A DNA stretch of 64,000 nt from Candidatus Polarisedimenticolia bacterium (GCA_036505635.1 DASXTC010000038.1:5109-69108); one strand, 5' to 3'; shown: positions 13,472 through 49,294, counted from the first letter of the stretch. Notes: generated by a model from the sequence alone, not told the origin. Program-made: numbers and translations.

Positions 13472-15214
<1,743 letters not shown>

Positions 15215-18447: not shown

Positions 18448-19704
18448 ATGTCTTCCGCACCCTGCCTGCGCCTCTACCGGGACGATTCGTACCTGAGAGA
18501 GTTCACGGCGCGCGTAACGGCCTGCGAGCCCGCGGGGGCGGATTTCGTCGCGATCGAGCTGGATCGGACCGCCTTCTATCCCACGGGCGGGGGGCAGCCT
18601 CACGACACGGGGACGCTGGCGGGAGTTCCCGTCGTGGAGGTGCGCGAAGGGGGAGACGGGCGGATCCTGCATATGACCCGCGGCTCCGAACCTCTCTCGG
18701 GGGAGATCGCCGGCGAGATCGACTGGCGGCGGCGATTCGATCACATGCAGCAGCACACGGGGCAGCACATCCTCTCTCGCGCCTTCGTGCGGATCGCCGG
18801 GGCGGCCACCAGGTCGTTTCATCTCGGCGAGCAGTCGTGCACGATCGATCTCGATCTCGCAGATCCGGATGAGGGGTTGATCCGGCGGGCCGAGGCGCTG
18901 GCCAACGAGAACATCTTTGCCGATCACGCCGTGGCGGTCGATCAGGTTCTCGCGGATCGCGCGCCGGGCATTGCCGCCAACATGAACCTGGCGCGGGAGC
19001 TGGCGCTCAAGCCGGGGGACGCCATCCGGATCGTGAAGGTCGGTCCCTTCGACGAGACGCCGTGCGGCGGGACGCACGTGGCGCGAAGCGGCGAGGTCGG
19101 CGCGGTCGCCATCCGCTCCTGGGAACGCTTCAAAGGGGGCACGCGCGTGAGCTTCCTGTGCGGCGCGCGGGTCGTTTCGGCCCTGGCCGGGATGGGCGCG
19201 GTGGTGGATGCCTGCGTGGGCCGGCTGTCGGCTCAGCCCGAAGAGCTGCCCGGCGCGATTGGCCGACTCCAGGATCAGCTTGCGGAGGCCCGCCGCGCCA
19301 CAAAGCTCCTCAACGAGGCGCTGGTGGGGGCCGAGGCGGTGGCGCGTGACGCGTCGGCGCGGCTGGCCGGCACCTGCCGGGTGATCGTCGAGGTCTTTCC
19401 CGAGCGACCCATCGATGACGTGCTGCTGCTGGCGCAGAAATACACCCTGACCGCCGGCCGGGTCGCGCTTCTGGCCGCGGTGGAGATGGCCACGGGCCGG
19501 GCGAGCCTCGTCTTCGCGCGCTCCGACAAGGGGACCCCCGCCGATCTGAAGATGGGCGACATCCTCGCGCATGTCTGCAGGTCCCGGGGCGGCAAGGGGG
19601 GCGGCGGGCCGGCGTTGGCGCAGGGCGGCGGGCTCGTGGCCGAGACGGCGCTGTCCGCCCTCGAGGAGGCCTTCGGGATCGTCTCGGCGCGCCTGGCATC
19701 ATGA
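18448..19704 (+). CDS. alaX: alanyl-tRNA editing protein AlaX (AlaRS editing-domain homolog, AlaX-M/L type)
   Basis: 418 aa. Zinc-binding HxxxH (HTGQHIL) and CxxxH (CGGTHV) motifs of the AlaRS second-additional/editing domain. Gly-rich C-terminus. Confidence 0.8.
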   Translation: MSSAPCLRLYRDDSYLREFTARVTACEPAGADFVAIELDRTAFYPTGGGQPHDTGTLAGVPVVEVREGGDGRILHMTRGSEPLSGEIAGEIDWRRRFDHMQQHTGQHILSRAFVRIAGAATRSFHLGEQSCTIDLDLADPDEGLIRRAEALANENIFADHAVAVDQVLADRAPGIAANMNLARELALKPGDAIRIVKVGPFDETPCGGTHVARSGEVGAVAIRSWERFKGGTRVSFLCGARVVSALAGMGAVVDACVGRLSAQPEELPGAIGRLQDQLAEARRATKLLNEALVGAEAVARDASARLAGTCRVIVEVFPERPIDDVLLLAQKYTLTAGRVALLAAVEMATGRASLVFARSDKGTPADLKMGDILAHVCRSRGGKGGGGPALAQGGGLVAETALSALEEAFGIVSARLAS

Positions 19705-21380
19705 GCAAAGAAGGTCCGGCGAGCCGGATCGCGGCCGGCGCCCTGCTGGTCCTCTTCTTTCTGACGGTCACGATCGCCGTCTCCACCAAATCGGCCACCT
19801 ACGACGAGTCGGTGCACATCTTCTCCGGCTGGCGGATCCTCACGGCCGGAGACTTCGCGACCAACCACGAGCATCCTCCCCTGATGAAGGCGCTGGCCGC
19901 CATCCCCGTGGCGCTCTCGGGTGCGGCCCCGCCGAAGGCCGCGATGAGGCGCGAGGTCGACGAGTGGAACGTCTCCCACGATTTCGTTTATCACGCCAAC
20001 GACGGCGACAGGATGCTGGCAAGGACGCGCCTGCCGGTGGCTCTGCTGGCGACCCTCCTTGCCTGGGCCCTGTACCGCTACGCGGCCGCCGCGTTCGGGC
20101 CGGCAGCGGCGCTCGTGGCTCTGGCCCTGCTGGTGTCGGAGCCGAACATCCTGGCCCACTCCGGGCTCGTGACGACCGATCTGGGGATCACGGCGCTCAC
20201 GTTCTTCACCTTCGCGGCCTTCGTCACGTGGCTGCGCACGCGTGCGAGTGCCTGGCTCTATGGGACGGGCCTGCTCTTCGGGCTGGCGCTCCTGACCAAG
20301 TTCACGGCGATCCTGCTGGCGCCCATCCTGATCCTGACCGGAGCGATTCACGCATGGATGGAAGGGACGAAACGCCGGGGCGATCTGGCCCGCGCGCCCG
20401 CCGTCATCGGGCTGGTGGGGCTCTTCGTGCTGAACCTCGGGTATGGGTTCTCGGGGAGCTTCTCCTCGCTGCGCTCCTTCCCGCCGGAGAGCGAGACGTT
20501 TCGCGCGAGGGCAGCAGGGCCATTCGGAGGCCTCCCCCTACCGCTGCCGGTGGAGTACGTGCGCGGCTACGACCACGCGGAGGCGGGCGGGCAACTCTGG
20601 TGGGCCTATCTCTTCGGAGAGCACTCGCGCACCGGGTGGCGTCACTACTATCTGGCCGCGCTGGCCGTCAAGACCCCGCTGCCGCTCCTGGCGATGGCAC
20701 TGGCCGGGCTCCTTCTCTGTCCCCGGGCCGCCGGCTCACCGCGCCAGGGCGCGGCCGGGGCCGCGGCCATCCGGCCGGCCGACGCCCTGCTTCCCGTGGC
20801 GCCGATCCTCGTCTACCTGGCGGCGTTCACGTTGTCGGGCAACCTCAAGAACATCGGGTTGCGCTACATCCTGCCCCTTTATCCCTTCCTCTGTCTGATG
20901 GCCGCGCTCGCCGCGCGCGCCCTCTGGAGCCGGATCCGGGCGAGACGCGCGATCATCGCCCTCACGGCCTGGCAGCTCCTCGTCGCGGCATGGATGTATC
21001 CCGACTACCTGACCTTTTTCAACCTGACGGTGGGAGGACCCTCGCACGGCGCCGAGGTCCTGCTCGACTCGAACCTCGACTGGGGTCAGGATCTCAAGGG
21101 GCTGGGCCGCTACATCAAGGACCACCGGATCGAAAGGATCTACGTGGACTACTTCGGGCGCGCGTGCAAGAGATACTACGGCGTCACGAGCACGCCCGAC
21201 TTCACGGGGGGCTGGATCGCGGTGTCGGCAACGAACCTCAGGGGGGTCTACGCCGACGACAAGGAGCGTTACCGCTTCCTCTGGGACCTCACGCCCGCGG
21301 CGCGGATCGGCGGATCGATCTTCGTGTACGACGTGCCGAGGCCGGAGGGCTGGACGCCCAAATCCGTGGCGGGGGACTGA
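19701..21380 (+). CDS. GT-C fold membrane glycosyltransferase (family 39/PMT- or ArnT-like)
   Basis: 559 aa, polytopic. Conserved DE-containing first periplasmic loop (ATYDESVHIFSGWRIL). ATGA overlap with alaX stop. Confidence 0.7.
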   Translation: MSKEGPASRIAAGALLVLFFLTVTIAVSTKSATYDESVHIFSGWRILTAGDFATNHEHPPLMKALAAIPVALSGAAPPKAAMRREVDEWNVSHDFVYHANDGDRMLARTRLPVALLATLLAWALYRYAAAAFGPAAALVALALLVSEPNILAHSGLVTTDLGITALTFFTFAAFVTWLRTRASAWLYGTGLLFGLALLTKFTAILLAPILILTGAIHAWMEGTKRRGDLARAPAVIGLVGLFVLNLGYGFSGSFSSLRSFPPESETFRARAAGPFGGLPLPLPVEYVRGYDHAEAGGQLWWAYLFGEHSRTGWRHYYLAALAVKTPLPLLAMALAGLLLCPRAAGSPRQGAAGAAAIRPADALLPVAPILVYLAAFTLSGNLKNIGLRYILPLYPFLCLMAALAARALWSRIRARRAIIALTAWQLLVAAWMYPDYLTFFNLTVGGPSHGAEVLLDSNLDWGQDLKGLGRYIKDHRIERIYVDYFGRACKRYYGVTSTPDFTGGWIAVSATNLRGVYADDKERYRFLWDLTPAARIGGSIFVYDVPRPEGWTPKSVAGD

Positions 21381-23063
21381 ATGGAGCAGAAGGGGCGGGT
21401 CGGCCGGAGCCGGGCCATCTGGATCGTGCTGGCCGCGGCGGCGGCGCTGCGCGTCATCTACCTCTTCGACTATCGCGCCCACTCCGTCTTCTGGGACAAG
21501 ATGCTCCTGGACGCGGAGCTCTACGACAACTGGGCCGTCCGGATCGCCGCCGGCGATTGGCTTTCGGGCACCGAGGTCTTCACGCTGCCGCCCCTCTACC
21601 CTTACTTCCTCGCGGTCCTCTACAGGATGTTCGGCCACGGCTATTCCGTCGTCTACGTCATCCAGTCCTGCCTGGGTCTGGCCAACATCTATCTCATCTA
21701 CGCCATCGGCCGGAAGGTGTTCGCCGGCAGGGCCCCTCTGATCGCCGCCGCCATGGCGACTCTGTACGGCTCGTTCATGTTCATGGAATCCAAGCTCATG
21801 AGCACGACACTCGCCCTGACGCTGGGGCTCTGTCTGATGCGGATGCTCTTGTGGGCGGGCGAGGCCCAGACGTTGACGCTGTGGGGGGCCTGTGGCGCGA
21901 TGCTGGGGCTGACGGCCCTGGCGAGGCCCGAGACGCTGGTCTTCGTGCCGTTCGCCGCGTGGTGGATCCATCGGGTGACGCGCAGGGGCGCCGCGCGCAA
22001 GCCGGCCGCGGCCATCGATCAGTATTTGCTGGCCGGCCGGCAACCCTGGTTCGCGATCTGCGCCTTCGCCTGCTTCGTGGTCATCGCGGTGTCCCCCGTG
22101 ACGATGCGCAACTGGGTGGTGTCCGATGACTGGAGCCTCTCGAACCTCATCTCGTCACAGGCGGGCATCACCTTCCATCAGTCCAACAACGAAAAGGCGG
22201 TCGGCCTCTACGTCTTCCTCCAGCACGAGGGATTCTCCGGGAGTCCGGCCTCGCAGGCCGAGGAAGAGAAGGCGCTCGCCGAGAAGGCGACCGGGCTTCC
22301 GATGAAGCGCTCGGAGGTGACGCGATACTGGATGGGAAGGGGACTCTCGTGGATCGTGGCCAACCCGACCAGGTTCGTGGCGCTGGAGTTCTGGAAGCTG
22401 GTGCGGTTCCTGGGATCGTACGAGTACAGCACCGAGTACATCATCTACGTGGAGCGCGAGTCGGTGAAGAGCCTGTGGCTGACCTGTCTGCCGTTCGCCG
22501 CCTTCACGGCGCTGGGACTGGCCGGCATCGCGATGCAGCGCAGGGAAGGTTTCCGCGCCCCGTCGCTGCTGCTCCTCCTGTTCGTGGTCTCGAACCTCCT
22601 CGTCGTGATGATGTTCTACGTCTCCTCGCGCTACCGGATGCCCTCGGCCCCCTACTTGATCCTGTTCGCGGCCTCCGCGGTCGAGAGGATGTGGAACGGA
22701 TACAGGTCCAGGATCGGCGCGGCCAGGACCGAGGCCTGGATCTACGCGGGCATCGCCGCCACGATCTTCGCCGTCTTTCATCCCCAGGTCGACGCGAGCA
22801 GTCGGATCCAGGAAGCCAACACCCATTACAACTCGGGCAACCAGTACTTCGAGAAGAAGCGGTACGAGGATGCGATCAAGGAGTACGACCGATCGCTCGT
22901 GGACTACCGCACCAACTGGCGCGCCTGGTACAACCGGGGCAACGCGCTCCTGGCGGTGGGGCGCAAGCCCGAGGCGATCGAGTCGTTCCGCCAGGCCCTC
23001 AAGCACAACAAGAACATGGCGGCGGCGCGGCGGCAGATCGAATCGCTGGGCGGGACTCCCTGA
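21381..23063 (+). CDS. GT-C fold membrane glycosyltransferase with C-terminal TPR repeats (TMTC-like architecture)
   Basis: 560 aa. About 10 TM helices, then TPRs (NSGNQYFEKKRYEDAIKEYDRSL...[29 protein letters not shown]). Starts 1 nt after the previous stop. Confidence 0.7.
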   Translation: MEQKGRVGRSRAIWIVLAAAAALRVIYLFDYRAHSVFWDKMLLDAELYDNWAVRIAAGDWLSGTEVFTLPPLYPYFLAVLYRMFGHGYSVVYVIQSCLGLANIYLIYAIGRKVFAGRAPLIAAAMATLYGSFMFMESKLMSTTLALTLGLCLMRMLLWAGEAQTLTLWGACGAMLGLTALARPETLVFVPFAAWWIHRVTRRGAARKPAAAIDQYLLAGRQPWFAICAFACFVVIAVSPVTMRNWVVSDDWSLSNLISSQAGITFHQSNNEKAVGLYVFLQHEGFSGSPASQAEEEKALAEKATGLPMKRSEVTRYWMGRGLSWIVANPTRFVALEFWKLVRFLGSYEYSTEYIIYVERESVKSLWLTCLPFAAFTALGLAGIAMQRREGFRAPSLLLLLFVVSNLLVVMMFYVSSRYRMPSAPYLILFAASAVERMWNGYRSRIGAARTEAWIYAGIAATIFAVFHPQVDASSRIQEANTHYNSGNQYFEKKRYEDAIKEYDRSLVDYRTNWRAWYNRGNALLAVGRKPEAIESFRQALKHNKNMAAARRQIESLGGTP

Positions 23064-24435
23064 AGAGGACCACGCAGCCGCCCCGTTCGGCGACCACCAC
23101 GAACCCATCGAGACGGCCGGGCCTCATCCGATCGAGGCGAGGCCGCGTCATCACGATCGCGACGGCCTCCCCCTCCGGCGTGCCGGCCAGCAGGCCGCGC
23201 AGCTCCTCGCCGCTCGTCACCCACACGGCACGGCGTCCCGCGTAGTAGACCAGGCTCGGCTTGTAGAGCCGGTACGACAGGAGCGTGAAGTCGCCGCGCC
23301 CCCCCGCCGGATCGAGACGGCCCGCGAGAACGAGGTCCTTCGTGCTGCGGGCGCGCGAGAGAGGGCCGGTGGCCGACAGCAGGGCCGCCACCAGCAGGAT
23401 CGCCATCGCGCCGGCCGTCCAGAGAACGATGCGGCGCGGCACGTGGCGCGCCACCATGAGCGCGAGAGCGGGGGCGGCGGGGAGCAGGTAGGCGTCGTTC
23501 TTGTCCGCCATCATGGTGAAGAACAGGATCACGCAGGCGAGCCAGCAGGCCAGGAAGAGGCCCACGAGGTCCGCCTCGCGCCGGGAGCGCCAGGCGGCGA
23601 CGAAGGCGAGGGGCGCGGCGAGCGACCACGGAAAAAAGGTCGGCCAGAACGAAACCAGAAAGTAATGAAACGGTCTGGGGTGATCGAGCCCCCGGACGGC
23701 CCGCTCGATCCCCTCGCGACCGATGAGATCGAGGGTCCCCTCCCATCCGATCCGACCCGAGAGCCCCGCGAGCCATGGGCCGGCGACGAGGAGGCTCCCC
23801 GCAAGGGCCATGGCGGCGCCCCGTGCGGTCACGAGGCGGGAGCGGCGCGCCACCGTGGCCGTGGCGATGATGACGGCCGCCGGCAGGAGCGCGCCGACGG
23901 GCCCCTTCGTGAGGGCGGCCAGCCCGCACGCCAGCGACGCGGCCATCGAGAGACGGCGTCGGGCCCCCGGCTCCTTCGCGGTCACCGCCTCGTGCCAGAT
24001 CAGGAGCGTCGCCCCGATCCAGAGCGCCAGCATCATGTCGGTGATGGCCAGCCGCGCGCAGGCGAAGAACAGAGGGATCGTGGCGAGTGAAGCGACCGCC
24101 AGGACCGAGGCCTGCGCGCCGATCCGGCGGCTCGCCCACCAGGCGATGAGCCCGGCGAGCGCCACCGCTGAGAGAAGGGAGGGCAGACGCGCGGCCCACT
24201 CGCTTTCGCCGAGCACGAGGTAGGACGCCGCCTGGGCCCAGTAGATGAGCGGCGGCTTGTTGAGGCGGGGCTCCCCGTTGAAGCGCGGCACGATCGGGTC
24301 GCCCGATGAGACCATCTCGGGGGCCGCCGCCGCGTAGCGCCCCTCGTCCGGATCCAGAAGCGCGACGCCCCCCAGGCGGAACGACAGGAGCGCGACGGCG
24401 AGGGCGAGGATCGCCCAGAGCGAGCGGGACGACAT
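22999..24435 (-). CDS. ArnT-like glycosyltransferase family 39 protein (undecaprenyl-phosphate sugar transferase-like)
   Basis: ORF 22999..24750. Preferred start ATG 24435 ([19 protein letters not shown]). [34 protein letters not shown] is the ArnT/PMT signature loop. Its 3' end overlaps the convergent upstream gene by 65 bp. Confidence 0.8.
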
Positions 24436-25538: not shown

Positions 25539-27998
25539 ATGAAGCGAATCCCCCATCTGGCCACGGGGGCCCTGCTCCGCCGGGCAACCCTTGCCGCCGC
25601 TCTGCATTCGGCCGCGCTCCTTTCCGCGCCGGCCGCCGCGCCCGCCGACCAGTGGTACGCGCACTACCAGAAGGGAGAGTCGGCCCTCAACGATCAGTAC
25701 TGGGCGCAGGCGATCGAGGAGCTGACCCAGGCGATCGAGCTGCGAGGCGATCCGGGCGTCGGTCTGAGGGCCAATGGGATCGATTCCATCAACTACCTGC
25801 CTTACCTGAAGCTTGGGATCGCTTACTTCAACGTGGGCCAGTACGACGCCGCCCTGAGGGCCTTCGAATCGGAGGAAAGGGCCGCGGCGATCCAGAAGTC
25901 CCCCACAGACCATCAGAACCTCCAGACCTTCCGGGGCCTCGCGCAGGACGCGCTGGCCGCAATCGTGACCGACAGCCTGCAGCAGGCGCAGGAGCTGGAG
26001 CGCAAAGGGCAGATTGACAAGGCGCTCGAGGCCCTCGAACGCGGCCTCGCCGTCGCCCGCCAGGACAGCGAGGTGCTTTCCAGGATGCGCCGGCTCAGAC
26101 AGCTTCTCGAGGCGCAGAAGAAGGAGTGGATCCTCGAGAACAGCATCCGCAGGATGATGGGCGAGGGGCGCAGACTGATCGGCGAGCGTGAGTACGCCAG
26201 GGCTTCTGCGCTGCTCAGGCAGGCGCTCATGCTGAAGCCGAGCATGCAGGCGAGAGATCTGCTGGAGCACTCCCAGCAGGCGCTGCAGGAGGAGCTCACC
26301 GGGAAACTCGACGAGGATGGGCGTCGCGCCCTCATCAAGGACTCCCTGGCCGAGGCGGCCAGGCTGGATTCGAGCGGCCGCCTGGCCGAGGCGATCGAGA
26401 AGCTCCAGTCGGTCCTGGCTCTCGACGCGAGAAACTCGCAGGCGATGCAGATGCAATTCAGGATCGTCCAGGCGCAGGTCCAGGACCAGAACACCAAGGC
26501 TCTGGCGCAGGAGGCGTCGCGGCTGGTGAACGAGGGGGTGGACCATCTCAACAACGGGATGTACCAGGAGGCGATCGCCGCCATCAGCAGGGCGCTGACG
26601 CTGGATCCCGGCAACGCGACGGCCCGGAACCTGTTGTGGCGGGCCTTCTCGGCGCGCAATCTGGCCGTCGGGGTGCAGACGAGGCCCCCGGCGGCGCCGA
26701 AGCTCCCCCCCACAATCATTTTCCTGGGCACGGCCGGCGGCACCGGCGATCCGGGGTCGGGAGTCGAGCAGGAGATCTCCTCGCCCGATTTCTCCCTGAA
26801 GGGGATCGTGGTTTCGGATCAACCGCGGATCGACCTCTCCTTCACGCGGACCCGCGATGAACCCGAGGGGGGCGCCGTCCCCGTAGAGGTGGTCGTGGCC
26901 TCGAAGGCCGGGCTGGCTGGCGAGCAGGCAGGGAACCTCTATCGGTTTCGATTTGATCAGCCCTCCACGGTTCCGGAAGGAGTGACGCGCTTCAAGGTGA
27001 CGGCGGTCGATCCGCGGGGGCTCGCCTCCGAGGCGTCGTTCCACGTGAGATACGTGCGCCCGCTGAGCCGCTCCCCCTGGTTCTATCCGGCGCTCGGGCT
27101 GCTCGCGGCCGCCGCGCTCGGGGGCGTGCAGATGTACCGAACCCGGCGCAGGAACCTTCTGAGGAGACGCCGATTCAATCCGTACGTCGCCGGCGCGCCG
27201 GTGCTCGACAACGACCTGTTTCTGGGCCGCGACGCGCTGCTGTCGAGGATCCTCGAAAGCGTCCACAACAACAGCATCCTCCTGTTCGGGGAGCGCCGGA
27301 TCGGCAAGACAAGCCTCCAGCATCACCTCAGGAAGCGCCTCCAGAACATTCAGGACCCGGTCTACGAATTCCACCCCGTCTACATCGACCTGGAGGGGAC
27401 TCCCGAGGACCGCTTCTTCGCCCGGCTGGCTCAGGACATCTTCGACGAGCTGTCGCCGATGCTGGACGGCGCGCGTCCCGGGCAGGGGATGCCGGAAGGG
27501 GCCGAGTACACCTACCAGACGTTCGTGCGCGACGTGCACCTCGTGCTCAAGATCCTCAAGAAGCGCAGCGCGAAGAGGGTGAAGCTGATCCTGCTCATCG
27601 ACGAGGTGGACGAGCTGAACAACTATGACCCGCGCATCAACCAGCGGCTGCGCAGCCTCTTCATGAAGAGCTTCGCCGAGGATCTGGTCGCGGTGGTGTC
27701 GGGCGTGGGGATCAGCAAGCACTGGGCCAGCGAGGGGAGTCCCTGGTACAACTTCTTCGAGGAGATCGAGGTCAAGGCGTTCACCCGCGAGGACGCGGCC
27801 GATCTGATCCAGCGTCCCATACGCGGGGTCTTCAAGCTGAACGAGGGGGTCGTGGACCGGATCATCGAGCACACGGACTGCAAGCCGTACCTGATTCAGA
27901 AGCTGTGCGTGTCCCTTGTGAACCGGATGTACGTCGAGGGTCGCCGCAGGATCACCGTGGCGGACGTCGACGCCATCGGTCGTCCGGCGGAAGGGTAG
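25539..27998 (+). CDS. membrane receptor-like protein: periplasmic TPR/coiled-coil + Ig-like domain, single TM helix, cytoplasmic archaeal-type (PF01637-like) P-loop ATPase
   Basis: In-frame part of ORF 24306..27998 from ATG 25539 (MKRIPHLATGALLRRATLAAALHSAALLSAPAAAP signal peptide). TPR and long coiled coils to about 26650, then a beta-rich segment and TM helix WFYPALGLLAAAALGGVQMY followed by RRRR. Cytoplasmic NPYVAGAPVLDNDLFLGRDALL...LLFGERRIGKTSL (Walker A) and KLILLIDEVDEL (Walker B). Confidence 0.7.
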   Translation: MKRIPHLATGALLRRATLAAALHSAALLSAPAAAPADQWYAHYQKGESALNDQYWAQAIEELTQAIELRGDPGVGLRANGIDSINYLPYLKLGIAYFNVGQYDAALRAFESEERAAAIQKSPTDHQNLQTFRGLAQDALAAIVTDSLQQAQELERKGQIDKALEALERGLAVARQDSEVLSRMRRLRQLLEAQKKEWILENSIRRMMGEGRRLIGEREYARASALLRQALMLKPSMQARDLLEHSQQALQEELTGKLDEDGRRALIKDSLAEAARLDSSGRLAEAIEKLQSVLALDARNSQAMQMQFRIVQAQVQDQNTKALAQEASRLVNEGVDHLNNGMYQEAIAAISRALTLDPGNATARNLLWRAFSARNLAVGVQTRPPAAPKLPPTIIFLGTAGGTGDPGSGVEQEISSPDFSLKGIVVSDQPRIDLSFTRTRDEPEGGAVPVEVVVASKAGLAGEQAGNLYRFRFDQPSTVPEGVTRFKVTAVDPRGLASEASFHVRYVRPLSRSPWFYPALGLLAAAALGGVQMYRTRRRNLLRRRRFNPYVAGAPVLDNDLFLGRDALLSRILESVHNNSILLFGERRIGKTSLQHHLRKRLQNIQDPVYEFHPVYIDLEGTPEDRFFARLAQDIFDELSPMLDGARPGQGMPEGAEYTYQTFVRDVHLVLKILKKRSAKRVKLILLIDEVDELNNYDPRINQRLRSLFMKSFAEDLVAVVSGVGISKHWASEGSPWYNFFEEIEVKAFTREDAADLIQRPIRGVFKLNEGVVDRIIEHTDCKPYLIQKLCVSLVNRMYVEGRRRITVADVDAIGRPAEG

Positions 27999-28003
27999 AG
28001 CCG

Positions 28004-29920
28004 GTGACGACGAGCCCCTACGTCATCGGGCAGTGGGTCCGGCGCGAGAAGTTCTACGGCCGCGCCGCGCTCATCGAGGAGATCCTCGATGGGCACCGCA
28101 ACAGCATGTGGGTGCTCGGCACGCGCCGGATCGGCAAGACCTCGCTGCTCAAGCAGATCGAGCACCTGGCCTCGGCGGCCCCCGAACGGGGCTGGTTCCC
28201 CCTCTTCTGGGACTTCCAGGGGGCGGAGGATCTCGGCGAGCTGCACCGCGGGTTCGGCGATGCACTGCTCGATGCGGAGGAGGGGCTCGAACGGATCGGG
28301 ATCGGCACGGCCGAGTTGGAGGGTGGCGATCTGTTCGAATCGCTCGGACGGCTGCGCCGCAAGCTGCGCGGCAGCCGCCTGAGGCTCCTGCTGCTGTGCG
28401 ACGAGGTGGAGGAGCTGATCAAGCTGCACCAGAAAGACCCCGCTCTGCTGCGCAAGCTCCGGCGCGAGATGCAGTCGCGAGAGGACATCCGCACGGTCCT
28501 GACCTCCACGATCCGCCTCTGGGCGCTCTCGGGGCAGCGCGGAGACACCTCTCCCTTCCTTCACGGCTTCACCCCCCCGCTTCACATTCATGGGCTCGCC
28601 GACGGGGAGGCCCGGGCGCTGATCCGCCAGGAGCATCTGCCCGAGGACCTCAGACCCGCGATCGACGAAACGTCGGTCGAGGAGATCCGCGCCCGGTGCG
28701 ACAACCACCCTTACCTGATGCAGCTCGTGGGCAAGAAGTACCAGGAGCTGAAGGACCTCAAGGAGGCCATCGAGCAGGTGGCCTCCGACCAGATGGTGAG
28801 GTACTTCTTCGCGGTGGACTACGAGATGCTCTCGCAGGTGGAGCGCGACGTCCTGAGGATCATCTCGGAGGGCTCCGCGGCCAGCAGCGACTCGATCCTG
28901 CACGGGCTGGCCGTCGACCCGGGCGAGCTGGGAAGCACGTTGAACCACCTCGAGCGCCTCGGATACATCCGGCGCGACAAGGAGATGCGGTTCCACCTGG
29001 TGAACGACTTCTTCCGCCGGTGGTTTCGCGAGCAGCCGCGCCCGGACCCTCCAAGGCCGCCCGTCCCGCGGGCCGGTCTGCGTATCGAGGAGATGGCGAC
29101 GCAGCAGCCTGTGACCTTCGACGGACGCTACAGCCTGCTGGAGGAGATCGGGGCGGGCGCCACGGGAGTGGTCTACAAGGCCCTCGACGGCGAGGTGGGG
29201 GAGATGCTGGCGATCAAGATCCTCAAGCCCGAGTACTGCGCGCATGCCGACGGGCTCGAGCGGTTCCGCCGTGAGATCCTCCTGTCGCGCGACATCGGGC
29301 ATCCCAACGTGGCTCGGATCTACCATCTGGGCGATTGCGAAGGGCGCAAGTACCTCGCGATGAAGCTCATCGAGGGGATGACGCTGGCTCGGCTGATGCA
29401 GCAGGGAGGGCCTCTTCCGCTCAGCCGGGCGATCGCGATCGCGCGCAAGCTGGCCGGCGCGCTGGAGGCCGCCCATACGCAGCACGTGATCCACCGCGAC
29501 GTCAAGCCGCAGAACGTCCTGATCGATCGGCAGGGAGAGCCCTACCTCACCGATTTCGGGCTGGCCCGGCTCATGAGCGCCCCGGGCATGACGCACGCGG
29601 GGGTCTTCCTCGGCACCCCCGACTACGCCTCGCCCGAGCAGGCCGACCTGAGACCCGTGGACGAGCGTTCAGACATTTACGCGCTCGGCGTGGTCCTTTA
29701 CGAGATGGTGGCGGGCCGGCGCCCCTTCGTCTCGGCCACGATACCCGAGGTGCTTCAGATGCACCGCAGCTCTCCTCCGCCCGACCCGAGGGGCTTGCGG
29801 CCCGAGGTGCCGGCCCTCCTCGCCGGCCTGATCCTCCGGTGCCTCGAGAAGGATCCCGCCCGCCGCTTCGCCAGCGCCCGCGCGCTGCGCCTCGCCCTGG
29901 AGGAGATCACGCCTCCCTGA
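28004..29920 (+). CDS. fusion of archaeal-type P-loop ATPase (paralog of upstream gene) and Hanks-type Ser/Thr protein kinase
   Basis: ORF 27905..29920, preferred start GTG 28004 (6 nt after upstream stop; GGAAGGG upstream). N-terminal SPYVIGQWVRREKFYGRAALI...VLGTRRIGKTSLL and LLLLCDEVEEL are paralogous to the upstream ATPase. C-terminal kinase with GAGATGVVY, AIKILK, HRDVKPQNVLI, DFGLAR, SPEQ. Confidence 0.8.
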   Translation: MTTSPYVIGQWVRREKFYGRAALIEEILDGHRNSMWVLGTRRIGKTSLLKQIEHLASAAPERGWFPLFWDFQGAEDLGELHRGFGDALLDAEEGLERIGIGTAELEGGDLFESLGRLRRKLRGSRLRLLLLCDEVEELIKLHQKDPALLRKLRREMQSREDIRTVLTSTIRLWALSGQRGDTSPFLHGFTPPLHIHGLADGEARALIRQEHLPEDLRPAIDETSVEEIRARCDNHPYLMQLVGKKYQELKDLKEAIEQVASDQMVRYFFAVDYEMLSQVERDVLRIISEGSAASSDSILHGLAVDPGELGSTLNHLERLGYIRRDKEMRFHLVNDFFRRWFREQPRPDPPRPPVPRAGLRIEEMATQQPVTFDGRYSLLEEIGAGATGVVYKALDGEVGEMLAIKILKPEYCAHADGLERFRREILLSRDIGHPNVARIYHLGDCEGRKYLAMKLIEGMTLARLMQQGGPLPLSRAIAIARKLAGALEAAHTQHVIHRDVKPQNVLIDRQGEPYLTDFGLARLMSAPGMTHAGVFLGTPDYASPEQADLRPVDERSDIYALGVVLYEMVAGRRPFVSATIPEVLQMHRSSPPPDPRGLRPEVPALLAGLILRCLEKDPARRFASARALRLALEEITPP

Positions 29921-30475: not shown

Positions 30476-33400
30476 ATGCTCGCAATGCGCCTCCTGTCAC
30501 GCCCCCGCAACATCATCCTGACGCTGGCCGCGCTCCTCCTCGCGGCGTGGACGGTCGCCTCCGTGCGACGCGTGCAGGGGGCCGGCGGCTTCCTCGTCGT
30601 CGACGCGCCATTGATTGGCTCCGCGCCCCATCTCGTCGATCCCGGCTGGCGCTTCGTCCCGCGTCTCTTCGGCCGAATCTCGGAGTATCCGGCCGCCTCC
30701 AGAAAGCTCAAGACGGAGCTGGCCGGCGAGCGGGCGGCCAGCAGCCGCGAGGGGGCCAAGGTCGAGGTGGAGGCGGAGCTGACCTACGTGATCCAGCCCG
30801 AGGGGGTCCTCGACCTTCATCGCGCGCAGGGGCCATCCTACGAGACCGGGTGGCTCGCCGGCGTGGTGCGCGAGCAGACGGCAGCGCGGCTGGCCAGCGT
30901 CTCCTACGACGTCGTGCGCAACCGCGACCCCGAGCTGACCAAGGGCCTGCGGGCGGCCATCGACCGGAAGATCTCCGGTTCGGGCATCCGGATCGAGGGC
31001 CTGAGGCTCGTCCAGGTCGCCGGGCTGGGGGAGGCATCCGGTGACATCGCGAGACCGGCGGGCGGGCCGATCGAGCGTGAGGTCGTCGTCATAGGAGTCG
31101 ATTCCTTCAATTGGCGCGTCATCGAGCCGCTCATGCGGAAGGGCAGGATGCCAAACCTCGCGCGCCTGGTCGCGCGCGGGGCTCGGGCCAATCTCAGGAC
31201 GATCCGGCCGATACTCTCTCCGGTCATCTGGACCAGCATCGCCACGGGGGTCAAGCCGTCGCGCCACGGCATCGTGGATTTCGTCATCACGGCGCGCGAC
31301 ACGGGGGCGCTGGTGCCGGTCACGAGCGTCATGAGACAGGTCCCGGCAGTGTGGAGCCTCATGAGCCGTCAGGGGGTCGACGTCGACGTCGTGGCGTGGT
31401 GGGCCACCTGGCCGGCGGAAACCGTGCGCGGCAGCATCGTCACCGACCGCGTCGCGTACCAGCTCTTCGAGGACAGGATCAAGGAGGACTGGAAGAGCGC
31501 CGATCCCGCCCGCAACAAGGGCAAGACGTGGCCGGCGAACCTGATCGACGACGTCCGTCCCCTCATCCGGGTCCCCGGAGACGTGAGCGACGAGGAGGTC
31601 GGATGGTTCCTGCCCGGCGGGAAGGTGCCGCCATCCTTGACGGCAGAGCAGCGCGAGTTGATCAACGGATTCAGGACCATCATCGCCGCCGGCCAGACCT
31701 ATCACGCGATCGCACTGCGTCAGTTTCGCGAGCCGGGGCCGCGGCTGAAAATGGTCTATTACGAGGGGCCAGACGAGGTCTCCCATCTCTTCATGAAGTA
31801 CCGGCCGCCGCTGCTGGCCGGAACCAGCCCGACCGACATGGAACTGTTCGGTACGATCGTGGATCGCTACTACGAGCGTCAGGACCGCTACATCGGCGAG
31901 ATCCTCGATGCGGCGGGCAAGGACGCCGCCATCGTCCTGTGCTCCGACCATGGCTTCAAGTCGGACACCGACCGGCCGCCCAACAGCGACGCGCGGATCG
32001 GCAAGGGTGACGCCGCGGGCTGGCACACGCCTCTGGGGATCCTCGTCATGGCCGGGCCCGAGGTCAACCCGGGGATCGAGCTGAGCGCCGCCTCCGTGCT
32101 CGATATCACGCCCACCGTCCTGGCGCTCTACGGCCTGCCGGTGGCGCGCGACATGGACGGCCAGCCTCTGGCGGAGGCCCTGACTCCCGCGTTCCTGAAG
32201 GATCACCCGATCGCCTGGATCGATTCCTACGGAGGTTTCCGGAGCGCGACCGAGCAGGTCGCGGGGACCCAGAATCCCTCCTCGGATGACGCCGAGATGA
32301 TCGAGAAGCTGCGCTCGCTGGGCTACATCGGCGACGATCGCCTCACGGCGCGCAACAACCGCGCGACGATGGCCCTCGACGATGGGGACGTCGACGGGGC
32401 GATCCAGGAGTTCGAGACGGCGCTGGCCAAGGAAGGAGACGTCGGCACGCTGATGCGCACCAACCTCGCCCGCGCCTGGCTCGCCAAGGGGGAGATGGCC
32501 AAGGCGCAATCGCTGGCGGAGCAGGCCGTGGCCGAGGAGCCCGGCAACAAGTACGCCCTCCTCATCCTCGCCGGAGTGCGTGCCCATGGAAAGGACTACG
32601 ACGGCGCCGTTTCGTTCCTGAAGAGAGCCATCGAGATCGACCCGACCTACACGCAGGCCCGCTCGAGGCTCGGCGAGGTCTACGAGGAGATGGGACGTGA
32701 TGACGACGCCCTCGCCGAGTACCGGAGGGTGCTCGAGATCGCTCCGCTGAGCCCCGTCGAGCTCAACAACATCGGCAACATCCACCGCAAGCGGCGCCAG
32801 CTCGACCTCGCTATGGATGCCTATCGCGATGCCTTGCGCTGCGACGCGCGTTTCATCGGCGCCTACAACAACCTCGGCCTTTGCCTTCAGGAGAAGGGGG
32901 AGCTCGACGAGGCGCGCCGGCTTTACGACAAGGCGCTGGCCATCCGACCGGAGAACCCCATCCTGCGCAACAGCATGGGCACCTTGCTGGCGCTGCAGGG
33001 CGACAAGCAGGGCGCCCTCGCCCAGTTCGAGCGCGCCGTCAGCTCGGATCCCAACTGGGCGATCGGGCAGGGGAATCTCGCGAGGACGCTGATGGAGGTG
33101 GAGCGGTACGACGAGGGCAGGGCCGCCTTCGAGAAGCTGGTCGAGCTCGAGCCCGACTCGATCGAGTCGCGCCTGGGTCTGGGTCTGGCCTCCCTGATCA
33201 CGCAACGGCGGCCCGAGGCGGTCGCGCAGTTTGACGAGGTGCTCAAGCGCGACCCCGAGAACCTGCGGGCGCGCATCGCACTGGGGGAGACATACCTGCG
33301 CGGCGGCGATCTGGACAAGGCCCAGAGTCATCTCGAGAGAGCCGTCCAGATCAACGGAGGCATCGCGCGGATCTACAACAGCCTCGGGGAGATCTACCTC

Positions 33401-33517
33401 AAGCGTGGGCGCCGGCAGGACGCGGCGCGTGCCTTCCAGAAGTCGCTCGCGCTGGAGCCCGGCCAGAAGGCGGTACGCCAGAGGCTGGCGACCTTGGGAG
33501 GAGCGTCCCCCGGCTGA
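30476..33517 (+). CDS. membrane-anchored multidomain protein: SPFH/band-7-like segment + alkaline-phosphatase-superfamily (type I phosphodiesterase/nucleotide pyrophosphatase-like) domain + C-terminal TPR array
   Basis: 1013 aa. N-terminal TM anchor (IILTLAALLLAAWTV). GVDSFNWRVIEPLMRKGRMPNLARL...LSPVIWTSIATGVKPSRHGIVDF resembles the NPP/PhoD-type AlkP core. LCSDHGF metal-ligand motif. About 12 TPRs from about 32330. Confidence 0.7.
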   Translation: MLAMRLLSRPRNIILTLAALLLAAWTVASVRRVQGAGGFLVVDAPLIGSAPHLVDPGWRFVPRLFGRISEYPAASRKLKTELAGERAASSREGAKVEVEAELTYVIQPEGVLDLHRAQGPSYETGWLAGVVREQTAARLASVSYDVVRNRDPELTKGLRAAIDRKISGSGIRIEGLRLVQVAGLGEASGDIARPAGGPIEREVVVIGVDSFNWRVIEPLMRKGRMPNLARLVARGARANLRTIRPILSPVIWTSIATGVKPSRHGIVDFVITARDTGALVPVTSVMRQVPAVWSLMSRQGVDVDVVAWWATWPAETVRGSIVTDRVAYQLFEDRIKEDWKSADPARNKGKTWPANLIDDVRPLIRVPGDVSDEEVGWFLPGGKVPPSLTAEQRELINGFRTIIAAGQTYHAIALRQFREPGPRLKMVYYEGPDEVSHLFMKYRPPLLAGTSPTDMELFGTIVDRYYERQDRYIGEILDAAGKDAAIVLCSDHGFKSDTDRPPNSDARIGKGDAAGWHTPLGILVMAGPEVNPGIELSAASVLDITPTVLALYGLPVARDMDGQPLAEALTPAFLKDHPIAWIDSYGGFRSATEQVAGTQNPSSDDAEMIEKLRSLGYIGDDRLTARNNRATMALDDGDVDGAIQEFETALAKEGDVGTLMRTNLARAWLAKGEMAKAQSLAEQAVAEEPGNKYALLILAGVRAHGKDYDGAVSFLKRAIEIDPTYTQARSRLGEVYEEMGRDDDALAEYRRVLEIAPLSPVELNNIGNIHRKRRQLDLAMDAYRDALRCDARFIGAYNNLGLCLQEKGELDEARRLYDKALAIRPENPILRNSMGTLLALQGDKQGALAQFERAVSSDPNWAIGQGNLARTLMEVERYDEGRAAFEKLVELEPDSIESRLGLGLASLITQRRPEAVAQFDEVLKRDPENLRARIALGETYLRGGDLDKAQSHLERAVQINGGIARIYNSLGEIYLKRGRRQDAARAFQKSLALEPGQKAVRQRLATLGGASPG

Positions 33518-47872: not shown

Positions 47873-48805
47873 TCATCTTTCACCAACAGCCCGTGCGAAC
47901 ACATCCTCCAGAGTCGGCTGCTTCCTCACCAGGTGCCTCACCTGCGCACGTGCCGCGTTGGCGGCCCCGAAGATCGCCTCGGAGCCCATCCCGTCGCGCA
48001 TCGAAACGTCGAGCATCCCGTCCTGCCCCGGCGTCGCGGCGCACCCGTGCTGCGCCAGCATCCTCGTGAACTCGCCCTGCTGCTCGGGGCTTCCCTTCAG
48101 CCTCACCTCGAACAGCTCGCCGGAGGCTCCCTTGAGCGCCTCGATGCTTCCCTGGCCCACGACCTTGCCGTGCGACAGCATCACGACCGAGCGACAGGTC
48201 TCCTCGACGTCCCGCAGCAGGTGGCTCGACAGCACCACGTTGACGTTCTTGCGCTGAGCGAGGTCCCGGATCAGGGCGAGCATCTCCATCCGCCCCTTCG
48301 GGTCGAGCCCGTTGGTCGGCTCGTCCAGAAAGAGGATGTGCGGCCCGTGCACCAGCGCCTGCGCCAGCTTCACTCGCTGCCTCATCCCGGTGGAATAGGT
48401 CTCGACGTTGCGGTACCGCTCGTCGCCCAGCCCCACGTAGTAGAGCGCCTCGTGGGCGCGCTGCAGCGCCTCGACCCCCGGCATGCCGCACAGCTCGCCC
48501 ATGTAGGCGGTCAGCGACACGGCGTTCATCCCCGGGATGTGACAGTCGATCTCGGGCATGTAGCCGACCTTCTGCCTCACGTCGAGGGGGTGGGTCGCGA
48601 CGTCCATTCCGAGGACCCGGGCGCTTCCCGCGCCCGGCGTCAGGAACCCGAGCAGCGTCTTGAGCAGGCTGGACTTACCCGCCCCGTTGGGGCCCAGCAA
48701 CCCCACCGCCCCGGCCGGGAAGATGGCGCTCACGGAGTCCAGCGCGCGGCTCCTGCCGTAGAGGATCGTCAGCCCTTCGACCTGGATGACGCCGTCGCCG
48801 CCCAT
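47873..48805 (-). CDS. ABC transporter ATP-binding protein
   Basis: ORF 47873..48856, preferred start M18 (ATG 48805; GGGGGA 6 nt upstream). GPNGAGKSS, YSTGMRQRV, ILFLDEPTNGLD. About 90-aa C-terminal extension. Confidence 0.85.
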   Translation of the reverse strand: MGGDGVIQVEGLTILYGRSRALDSVSAIFPAGAVGLLGPNGAGKSSLLKTLLGFLTPGAGSARVLGMDVATHPLDVRQKVGYMPEIDCHIPGMNAVSLTAYMGELCGMPGVEALQRAHEALYYVGLGDERYRNVETYSTGMRQRVKLAQALVHGPHILFLDEPTNGLDPKGRMEMLALIRDLAQRKNVNVVLSSHLLRDVEETCRSVVMLSHGKVVGQGSIEALKGASGELFEVRLKGSPEQQGEFTRMLAQHGCAATPGQDGMLDVSMRDGMGSEAIFGAANAARAQVRHLVRKQPTLEDVFARAVGER

Positions 48806-48865
48806 GGAGGTCCCCCGCATGCCGCTATCTACGGATGGAGGCGCAGGTTGGTTCATCGGAAGGTC

Positions 48866-49294
48866 TCAGGATTCAATCCGGAACTTGAAGATGTACCGGG
48901 AGAACGACGTCCCCGCGATGATGACGTCGTGGTCCTTGAGAAGGACCTCGTCGGGCCGGGCGCCGCCGCCGAGAACCTCCCCCTCCACGATGGTCCCGCA
49001 GGTGGAGCCGCGGTCGAGCAGGAAGAAGCCGCCGGCTCTCCGGTCGATGAGGAAATGCTCGCGCGACACGTTCATCGGTTCGCTCTCCTCCACGAGGTAG
49101 AGGTCGTTGTTGGGTGGGGCCTCCGTGCGCCGCTCGCCCACCAGGCCCAGCTCGGTCCACTTGAACCGGCGCGACTCCCGGCCGACCCGGAAGGGCAGGT
49201 GCGGGATGTTGATCTCGTGGGCCTGGAACGCGGCGGCGCTCTCGGGAGTGAGAGCCACGAGGTAGGCGCCCGTGGGGCCGGGTGCGTCAGGCAT
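48866..49294 (-). CDS. FHA (forkhead-associated) domain protein
   Basis: 142 aa. FRVGRES...YLVE..SREHFLIDRRAGGFFLLDRGSTCGTIVEG matches the FHA fold core (GR, SxxH, N/D-G). First gene of the minus-strand ABC cluster. Confidence 0.8.
   Translation of the reverse strand: MPDAPGPTGAYLVALTPESAAAFQAHEINIPHLPFRVGRESRRFKWTELGLVGERRTEAPPNNDLYLVEESEPMNVSREHFLIDRRAGGFFLLDRGSTCGTIVEGEVLGGGARPDEVLLKDHDVIIAGTSFSRYIFKFRIES

Follow-up and report, generated by a model that had tools for sequence, protein, structure and literature searches.

Two adjacent genes on the plus strand (positions 25539-29920) of a 64,000-nucleotide stretch of DNA from Candidatus Polarisedimenticolia bacterium (GCA_036505635.1 DASXTC010000038.1:5109-69108; the window in the following) probably encode a two-protein transmembrane signaling module based on paralogous AAA+/STAND-like NTPases, a reading that we hold with moderate confidence. 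The first protein, representing the receptor family A1, is a type-I membrane receptor whose sole cytoplasmic part is a Walker ATPase. The second, representing the family A2, is a paralogous ATPase that is soluble, comprises a helical lid and a winged helix, and bears the output (here a Hanks-type Ser/Thr kinase). The receptor-ATPase probably controls the transducer-ATPase by nucleotide-dependent hetero-oligomerization. The whole analysis was computational, and gene calls in the fetched loci were heuristic; L and P followed by a number label the loci and predicted proteins used in the comparison. Documented below are the anatomy and topology of the two proteins, their paralogy, the intact catalytic motifs, the conserved synteny, and the swapping of input and output domains. 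What we propose on top of these observations concerns the physical contact between A1 and A2, the sign and direction of their control, the ligand, and the substrate of the kinase.

Domain architecture and paralogy of the two proteins

Gene 1 (25539..27998, + strand, 819 amino acids (aa)) starts with ATG, with AGGA 12 nucleotides (nt) upstream, and its stop codon lies at 27996-27998. The gene was delineated from its open reading frame (ORF), start codon, Pfam matches, 13 full-length homologs, and an AlphaFold2 (AF2) model. The model was computed with 13 family members (predicted local distance difference test (pLDDT) score 73.5) and comprises a helix at residues 9-29, helical repeats (37-377), a beta-sandwich (392-505), a further helix (515-543), and an ATPase (564-813). 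The first helix, which is hydrophobic, belongs to a signal peptide (aa ~1-36; 25539..25646, +), which in the family alignment ends with A-x-A just ahead of an invariant D-x-W-Y-x-H-Y. The signal peptide is followed by a periplasmic TPR/helical-repeat sensor region (aa 37-377; 25647..26669, +), all-alpha in the model and with matches to several Pfam TPR families (TPR_2, TPR_1, and TPR_14) at residues ~90-370. A coiled-coil ascribed to the protein in an initial annotation of this DNA was instead predicted as long helices within this repeat array. The membrane-proximal part of the periplasmic region (aa 392-505; 26712..27053, +) forms a beta-sandwich of eight to nine strands. As it has no Pfam match, its earlier label 'Ig-like' can be kept in a structural sense only. 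The ectodomain was the fastest-evolving part of the module (its mean identity was 44 %; the A1 ATPase reached 65 % and the N-terminal region of A2 58 %), which fits the usual behavior of sensors.

A single transmembrane (TM) helix (aa ~514-533; 27078..27137, +), called from the sequence and the AF2 helix at 515-543, reads WFYPALGLLAAAALGGVQMY and is directly followed by an Arg-rich stop-transfer stretch, RTRRRNLLRRRR. Because of this stretch, the ATPase is placed in the cytoplasm by the positive-inside rule, and the signal sequence together with the TM/charge pattern places the N-terminal 480 aa in the periplasm. A Kyte-Doolittle scan (window 19, threshold 1.5) did not flag the Ala/Gly-rich segment; the TM call therefore relies on the AF2 model, the charge pattern, and conservation.

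The cytoplasmic ATPase domain of A1 (aa 545-819; 27171..27995, +) matched Pfam ATPase_2 (PF01637) with 35.1 bits at residues 568-789, covering the full model and exceeding the gathering score of 33.2. It also matched AAA_22, and a match to nSTAND2 (PF20702; E 0.051, 13.3 bits) remained far under threshold. Walker A (GERRIGKTS, aa 584-592; 27288-27314, +) and Walker B (LILLIDEVDE, aa 683-692; 27585-27614, +) were readily located, and GERRIGKTS and LLIDEVDE are invariant across the alignment of the A1 family. Since the ATPase module ends after the helical lid, A1 has no winged helix. The overall layout proposed in the initial annotation, i.e. signal peptide, TPR region, one TM helix, and cytoplasmic P-loop ATPase, was thus recovered by Pfam, the AF2 model, and the alignment of homologs. 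The one-ORF architecture was kept in 13 independent proteins and in dozens of loci, so an assembly artefact can be dismissed; the possibility that a frameshift had joined two genes was likewise removed by the presence of a single gene in all homologs.

Gene 2 (28004..29920, +, 638 aa; called from Pfam matches and >120 full-length homologs with 55-66 % identity) starts with GTG at 28004, 5 nt past the stop of gene 1, with GAAGGG just upstream. Its N-terminal part is an ATPase core with a helical lid (aa 1-260; 28004..28783, +), defined by hhalign against the A1 family, by Foldseek, and by conserved motifs. Walker A (GTRRIGKTS, aa 39-47; 28118-28144, +) and Walker B (LLLLCDEVEE, aa 128-137; 28385-28414, +) were conserved in 120 of the 120 full-length homologs. 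Adjacent to the core is a MarR-like winged-helix domain (aa ~263-345; 28790..29038, +), recognized by helices and a beta-hairpin in the AF2 model and by weak MarR matches (Pfam, residues 276-326). It occupies the same position as the winged helix-turn-helix (wHTH) of the archaeal PF01637 protein 2fna. This domain had been overlooked in the initial annotation, which had correctly described gene 2 as an ATPase joined to an intact Hanks kinase. The kinase domain (aa 376-628; 29129..29887, +; Pkinase E 6e-48) has the complete set of Hanks motifs: the Gly-rich loop, the VAIK Lys, the alpha-C Glu, HRD, the catalytic Asn, DFG, and APE. K405, E424, HRD497-499, N504, DFG517-519, and SPE were invariant in 120/120 full-length homologs. 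Judged by these motifs, the kinase is predicted to be active.

Assignment of the A2 ATPase to a class required a fold comparison. In Pfam, residues 14-172 gave weak matches to nSTAND1 (score 25.9, just under the threshold of 27.1), AAA_22, and ATPase_2 (PF01637; 20.8 bits, under the gathering score of 33.2) and none to nSTAND2 (PF20702). Of the Pfam families expected from the initial annotation, TPR, Pkinase, and, for gene 1, PF01637 were thus found, and PF01637 in gene 2 stayed under threshold. With a profile of 15 A2 N-terminal regions, the best PDB sequence match was 2fna, which was matched over its full length at a marginal E of 0.018. Because the PDB sequence searches yielded marginal matches only, Foldseek was used. 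The AF2 model of A2 (pLDDT 76) had as its top match 2qen, a Pyrococcus PF01637 ATPase (E 1e-10), followed by Orc1/Cdc6, plant NLRs, Apaf-type proteins, and MalT (8bob). The model contains the nucleotide-binding domain (NBD), the lid, and the wHTH, with the NLR, Apaf, and MalT matches ranking behind Orc1/Cdc6; A1 ends after the lid. On the basis of the profile, the AF2 model, and the fold matches, A2 was therefore classified as an AAA+/STAND-like module of the order NBD-lid-winged helix. The earlier guess of a PF01637 or STAND-like ATPase agrees with this PF01637/Orc-Cdc6/STAND-like AAA+ fold.

The two ATPases are paralogous, as the initial annotation had supposed. BLASTP aligned the A1 and A2 regions with 27 % identity over 271 aa (E 2e-10), and hhalign aligned the two family profiles with 99.8 % probability (E 1.5e-28, 247 columns). 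Common to both are the motifs [FS]NPY/SPYV-x-G-x-[PW]V, F-x-GR, G-x-RR-[IV]-GKTS, hhhhDEV[DE]EL, and [KH]PY-x-x-Q. The motif-by-motif correspondence noted earlier extended to the family level, where NPY/SPYV..G..V....F.GR, G.RRIGKTS, hhhhDEV[DE]EL, and [KH]PYL.Q were invariant or nearly so in both families.

Synteny and exchange of inputs and outputs

A profile of the A2 N-terminal region was scanned against one genome per species (185,579 species) and detected 71 loci, all of them in metagenome-assembled genomes. Most belong to Acidobacteriota (Thermoanaerobaculia, Polarisedimenticolia, Vicinamibacteria, Sulfomarinibacteraceae, and Holophagae) and the remainder mainly to Gammaproteobacteria of the Woeseiaceae; judged by the names given in the source, family members also occur in Calditrichota and Chloroflexota. 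In this set, an A1 gene ended 9-36 nt upstream on the same strand for 34 of the 39 A2-kinase genes with enough upstream DNA. All three long contigs with a gene 1 homolog (3/3) had an ATPase-kinase gene directly downstream, in otherwise different flanks. An independent second sample consisted of 80 metagenome loci seeded with the A1 ATPase domain. Here, an A2 homolog started at most 260 nt downstream of A1 in 44 loci and was divergently transcribed in 8-9; most of the non-pair remainder were contigs that were too short. Tight coupling (5 nt here; 9-36 nt or overlapping stop and start codons elsewhere) thus extends across >100 loci with 37-66 % identity, and the co-occurrence that the initial annotation had called for as a check holds in most related genomes and metagenome contigs. 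Moreover, the identities of the A1 and A2 ATPases co-vary (r = 0.69, Mantel p = 0.001, 54 pairs).

Several loci deviate from a simple one-to-one pairing. One A1 is accompanied by two A2 paralogs, one with a kinase and one with a sigma factor, in L023, L053, and L057, and in L118 (3282-9445) a TPR-A1 is flanked by an A2 with an OmpR domain (500 aa, upstream) and a bare A2 (332 aa, downstream). These arrangements fit a role of A1 as a hub for A2 modules. L118 also contains a FadL/TodX-type gene on the opposite strand. In two predicted proteins, P0151 (478 aa) and P0206 (603 aa), the reading frame runs on from an A1-type ATPase into the beginning of an A2-type one; these are either natural fusions or artefacts of gene calling or assembly.

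Inputs are exchanged on A1. A search with full-length gene 1 returned 13 matches only, the word index being saturated by TPR proteins, and domain-only queries were used instead. With phmmer, the A1 ATPase domain retrieved 362 proteins at E<1e-30 and 1408 at E<1e-10 from 1.84 billion cluster representatives; 509 proteins were found at E<=1e-20. This domain nearly always occupies the C-terminus of the protein, the total length being ~700, ~800, or 1050-1465 aa. In the representatives, the N-terminal regions consist of TPR arrays or of Reg_prop beta-propellers with Y_Y_Y, a periplasmic sensor typical of hybrid two-component systems. Every receptor type has a TM helix 10-20 residues before a conserved [RK]-x-F-N-P-Y motif. 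In other A1 relatives, a receiver domain forms the N-terminus, or the protein consists of a short, soluble core without a sensor. In L075, a bare A2 is flanked by two Reg_prop/Y_Y_Y-A1 receptors; its neighbors encode a Kelch propeller and a GH5/CBM32 glycosidase.

Outputs are exchanged on A2. They were classified by Pfam in representatives and by length class and tblastn in the other loci. Six forms were distinguished: (i) a Hanks kinase, in the window and most Acidobacteriota; (ii) a kinase with a C-terminal extracytoplasmic function (ECF) sigma factor of type PF07638, in L003/L040, L008, L017, L030, L045, L056, and L063 as well as in P0114 and P0121; (iii) an ECF sigma factor fused directly to A2 without a kinase (Sigma70_ECF E ~1e-55), in L023, L041, and L057; (iv) an N-terminal OmpR-type Trans_reg_C domain, in L018, L026, and L067 (Woeseiaceae) and in L020, L043, and L118; (v) a bare ATPase-wHTH of 330-374 aa, in L075, L134, and a large soil group; and (vi) a C-terminal SIR2 domain, in L078 and L079, where the A2 part is 32-35 % identical to that of the window (E 3e-37 to 5e-51).

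Some of these forms have peculiarities of their own. In L018 (9710-11467), L067 (9599-11452), and further Woeseiaceae loci, the OmpR-A2 proteins extend at the C-terminus by an additional ~105-153 aa without a Pfam match, and A1 is transcribed divergently, with a DUF5666/DUF2807 (sometimes Calx-beta) protein in between. The distant pairs of L078 (1360-4583), L079 (6001-8843), and L080 (737-3579) combine a short or receiver-fused A1 with an A2 bearing a C-terminal SIR2 domain; they sit in sugar-modification and glycosyltransferase clusters, including a 'GT4-conflict' match, and are absent from PADLOC. In the soil group (L134 2901-8904, with the same order in L136 and L153), the TPR-A1 and bare A2 lie behind two genes (~450-464 aa and 312-354 aa), which in L134, the only one of these loci checked by Pfam, encode an Amidase_2 protein and an actin-like protein of the Volactin family.

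Among the neighboring genes, a FadL/TodX-type outer-membrane gene (Pfam Toluene_X) was found within 10 kb in 52 of 74 loci. As genomes generally contain few such barrels, this association would be far above chance. In L123 (2617-6189; also in L122 and L125), a TPR-A1 of 701 aa comes immediately after a FadL/TodX-type gene, and A2 is absent over 7 kb, contrary to the usual pairing. An OmpW-like barrel, a ~860-aa protein with a beta-lactamase fold, and a DUF5666/DUF2807 protein recur in sub-groups. A further cluster of conserved proteins, c8 (227-255 aa, no Pfam match), is encoded between FadL/TodX-type genes and directly upstream of A1 in the kinase-sigma loci (L040 4982-5719, L056 4107-4790, L063 3549-4235, L017 3996-4763, and L008 63-746).

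In loci with sigma-bearing A2, the bipartite motif ACKRCGG-N15-RKCGCGTTAC is conserved ahead of the gene that opens the cluster (c8, FadL-type, or A1), in spacers that are otherwise unalignable. Sites are located in L040 (4966-4992), L056 (~4035-4061), L063 (~3477-3503), L017 (~4008-4034), L041 (~14995-15021), L057 (~3870-3896), and, on the minus strand, L045 (near 4684). The motif is a candidate ECF-type promoter that would be autoregulated. Because a loose form of the motif is no rarer than chance over all loci, only the position of the sites and the extended match count as evidence. A scan of the window for the motif detected no site.

In the window itself, three PMT_2-type glycosyltransferase genes and a zinc alcohol dehydrogenase gene, ending 44 nt before gene 1, lie upstream of the pair. 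The PMT_2-type genes (dolichyl-phosphate-mannose/ArnT-like) form a cluster of adjacent paralogs at 19701-24435. One is on the minus strand; of the other two, which are on the plus strand, one has C-terminal TPRs. Downstream, a convergent DJ-1/PfpI gene overlaps the end of gene 2 tail-to-tail. It is followed by a gene (30476-33517, +) for a 1013-aa protein with an unusual combination of an N-terminal Band_7/SPFH domain, a type I phosphodiesterase/nucleotide pyrophosphatase, and a long C-terminal TPR array. None of the window neighbors is conserved beside homologous pairs; the functional unit was therefore taken to be the two genes. An FHA protein (48866-49294, minus strand, Pfam FHA E 6e-8) had been suggested in the initial annotation as a kinase substrate. 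It was rejected as a specific partner: its gene is 19 kb distant, forms part of an ABC-transporter operon, and accompanies the module in no other locus. The FHA gene is directly upstream of the ABC-transporter ATPase gene at 47873-48856 (both minus; span 47873-49294).

Proposed mechanism and alternative explanations

That paralogous AAA+/STAND NTPases hetero-oligomerize around a nucleotide is well established, namely in the case of Orc1/Cdc6, clamp loaders, and NLRs. Following this precedent, signaling by the pair would proceed in five steps: (i) a periplasmic cue would alter the conformation or oligomeric state of A1; (ii) this change would shift the nucleotide state of the A1 ATPase; (iii) the A1 ATPase would engage or release the A2 ATPase in a nucleotide-dependent hetero-oligomer, comparable to Orc1/Cdc6 and STAND assemblies; (iv) clustering of A2 would activate the kinase by trans-autophosphorylation; and (v) the kinase would phosphorylate a transcription factor, the favored target being a PF07638-type ECF sigma factor encoded elsewhere in the genome. 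That a receptor ATPase acts on an output-bearing paralog had already been suggested from the two genes, and the domain swapping on both partners strengthens this suggestion.

Judging from relatives, the cue is most likely a protein or hydrophobic-cargo signal tied to outer-membrane FadL/TodX-type channels. The substrate of the A2 kinase is most likely an unlinked ECF sigma factor, since PF07638 sigma factors are fused to the kinase or to A2 in sister lineages and phosphorylation by Ser/Thr kinases is a known way of activating such factors. For several ECF groups, it is established that a Ser/Thr kinase phosphorylates the sigma factor directly (PMC7826278). Both target and cue are extrapolated from relatives because the 64-kb window has neither a PF07638 sigma factor gene nor a FadL-type gene.

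A number of observations weigh against this model. The contact between A1 and A2 is inferred, and the co-variation of their identities is also expected from simple co-inheritance. Comparison of the N-terminal sequences identified no strictly conserved arginine finger in A2, in which position 171 is R, K, or N; R705 of A1 and R153 of A2 are invariant. Nowhere in the window is there a gene for a PF07638-type ECF sigma factor or for a protein of the FadL/TodX or OmpW type. Furthermore, A2 occurs without a nearby A1 in L016 and L055, a FadL-type gene and A1 occur without an A2 within 7 kb in L123-L125, and every member of the family stems from an uncultured organism.

The strongest competitor is a sequestration mechanism, which we consider unlikely, if clearly the best placed of the alternatives; its probability was estimated separately from that of the signaling module. 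According to it, resting A1 would hold A2 at the membrane by ATPase-ATPase contact, like an anti-sigma factor on its sigma factor or MalK and MalY on MalT, and the cue would release A2 to act by its kinase, its sigma factor, or DNA binding (wHTH or OmpR). Such a mechanism would explain why outputs that bind DNA or RNA polymerase (ECF sigma, OmpR wHTH, and bare wHTH) sit on A2 and never on A1, and the short soluble A1 forms without a sensor could serve as plain inhibitors. Negative control by partner proteins is also known for the STAND regulator MalT (PMC10427625). However, a passive tether would not need the Walker motifs that are intact in both proteins, and kinase outputs are usually switched on by clustering, not by release.

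It is improbable that the two genes function independently, A1 as a membrane-anchored ATPase in the biogenesis of the envelope or of outer-membrane proteins and A2 as a separate regulator that merely shares the operon. Periplasmic TPR proteins often serve outer-membrane assembly, envelope genes of the FadL/TodX, OmpW, and DUF2807 types are frequent nearby, and a few A1 or A2 genes are solitary. Nevertheless, coupling over >100 loci and mutual paralogy make independent functions unlikely: A1 and A2 are each other's closest paralogs and co-diverge, and A1-type ATPases are fused to classical signaling inputs (Reg_prop/Y_Y_Y and receiver domains).

Slightly less probable still is an anti-phage or conflict system in which a STAND-like NTPase pair would sense an invader and unleash a kinase effector: weak similarities to nSTAND1, nSTAND2, nSTAND6, and Avs1b, the distant A1/A2 pairs with SIR2 (of the kind serving as NADase effector in defense systems), a published two-gene STAND NTPase operon predicted to act against invaders (PMC8195603), and high scores of the kinase domain against PADLOC kinase models are outweighed by the extracytoplasmic sensor, the transcription-factor outputs of close relatives, neighbors that are housekeeping or outer-membrane genes and not defense islands, PADLOC v2 matches (PD-T4-6, mad6, and similar) that cover only the generic kinase domain and are absent or limited to the P-loop at E>1e-5 for the ATPase modules, the lack of relatives among 2.9 million viral contigs, and two NTPases that are both intact, unlike those of the nSTAND2 pair. 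Taken together, the scans of PADLOC and of the viral contigs showed similarity to generic kinase, SIR2, and P-loop domains and to nothing else.

Relation to known systems and implications

The initial annotation had named no described module of this composition. Searches on the domain combination in the text of 8 million papers, together with the ECF classification, conflict-system work of the Aravind laboratory, and a 2026 STAND survey, likewise yielded no published description of the module, and only partial analogs. The ingredients are known, i.e. STAND-like switches, Hanks kinases, kinase-controlled ECF sigma factors, and paired STAND operons. The split layout, with a transmembrane receptor-NTPase and modular inputs and outputs, appears to be new.

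Among the analogs, the STAND regulators (MalT, AfsR/SARP-type proteins, GutR, and the LAL family) share a ligand-controlled oligomerization switch of P-loop NTPase, lid, and winged helix that is coupled to an output. They also use TPR repeats as a sensor; the A2 relatives with an OmpR domain before the NTPase resemble AfsR, and MalT is among the fold matches of A2. In contrast to the module described here, each of them is one cytoplasmic polypeptide that responds to a ligand inside the cell. In the A1/A2 pair, the TPR sensor is periplasmic and located on a separate membrane-spanning NTPase, the kinase effector resides on the other protein, the NTPase is of the PF01637/Orc-Cdc6-like and not of the NB-ARC or MalT type, and A1 has no winged helix.

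The paired nSTAND2 operon also combines two paralogous STAND-type NTPases, one of which carries a fused effector of variable type, and a hetero-multimer has been predicted (Kaur, Iyer, Burroughs, Aravind 2021, eLife; PMC8195603). In that operon, which is mobile and predicted to act against invaders, one NTPase has eroded motifs and the effectors are GT4 or HEPN domains. In the A1/A2 pair, by contrast, both sets of Walker motifs are invariant, one NTPase is a transmembrane receptor, and the outputs are kinase, sigma factor, or OmpR domains. Kinase-regulated ECF sigma factors (ECF43 and related groups; PknT/EcfP and PknS/EcfK) likewise link a Hanks kinase to an ECF sigma factor without an anti-sigma factor, and in relatives of gene 2 the sigma factor is fused to the C-terminus of the kinase, although none is encoded in the window. 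The known kinases, however, carry a TM or sensor region of their own, whereas here a soluble kinase lies behind an NTPase and would depend on a receptor-NTPase.

FecA-FecR-FecI and the Reg_prop/Y_Y_Y hybrid two-component systems resemble the A1/A2 loci in a trans-envelope logic, in which the gene of an outer-membrane channel lies beside that of a single-pass sensor of the inner membrane and the output is an ECF sigma factor or DNA binding, and some A1 relatives use the same Reg_prop/Y_Y_Y ectodomain as the latter. Domains of FecA, FecR, or FecI (TonB-dependent transducer, FecR anti-sigma, and FecI sigma) were absent from the two genes and their neighbors; the relatives have FadL/TodX-type rather than TonB-dependent outer-membrane genes, and the transmitter is a pair of Walker NTPases. 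Pfam detected neither a HisKA/HATPase_c transmitter nor a receiver domain in either gene, and, unlike two-component systems, the pair has no histidine kinase or phosphorelay. Finally, archaeal PF01637 ATPases with a wHTH (2fna and 2qen) and Orc1/Cdc6 are the best matches of A2 and have the same order of NBD, lid, and wHTH, and Orc1/Cdc6 paralogs are heteromeric. Unlike A2, these soluble proteins, which are associated with DNA, have neither a receptor partner nor a kinase output, and the sequence similarity is marginal (E 0.018).

More tentatively, and with somewhat less confidence than in the module itself, the A1/A2 pair may be the core of a general, so far unrecognized class of bacterial signal transduction with a logic comparable to that of two-component systems. 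The Walker NTPase of the receptor would then act as the transmitter and the cognate paralogous NTPase-wHTH as the receiver, both ends being interchangeable, and information would pass by nucleotide-dependent hetero-oligomerization rather than phosphotransfer. The class would be spread over Acidobacteriota, Gammaproteobacteria (Woeseiaceae), Calditrichota, Chloroflexota, and soil lineages.

If the proposed mechanism is correct, these bacteria would signal across the membrane without histidine kinases, anti-sigma proteolysis, or a sensor built into the kinase; instead, the P-loop NTPase transmitter of a receptor would talk to an output-bearing sister NTPase. For the ECF sigma factors linked to kinases, most of which have no known input, it would also supply a regulator acting upstream, and the modularity at both ends would be attractive for synthetic signaling circuits. 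Envelope sensing in bacteria would be mechanistically tied to the STAND/NLR oligomerization switches of immunity, and a function would be assigned to hundreds of uncharacterized gene pairs of the type 'TPR repeat protein / ATP-binding protein / protein kinase' from bacteria that are abundant in sediments and soils.

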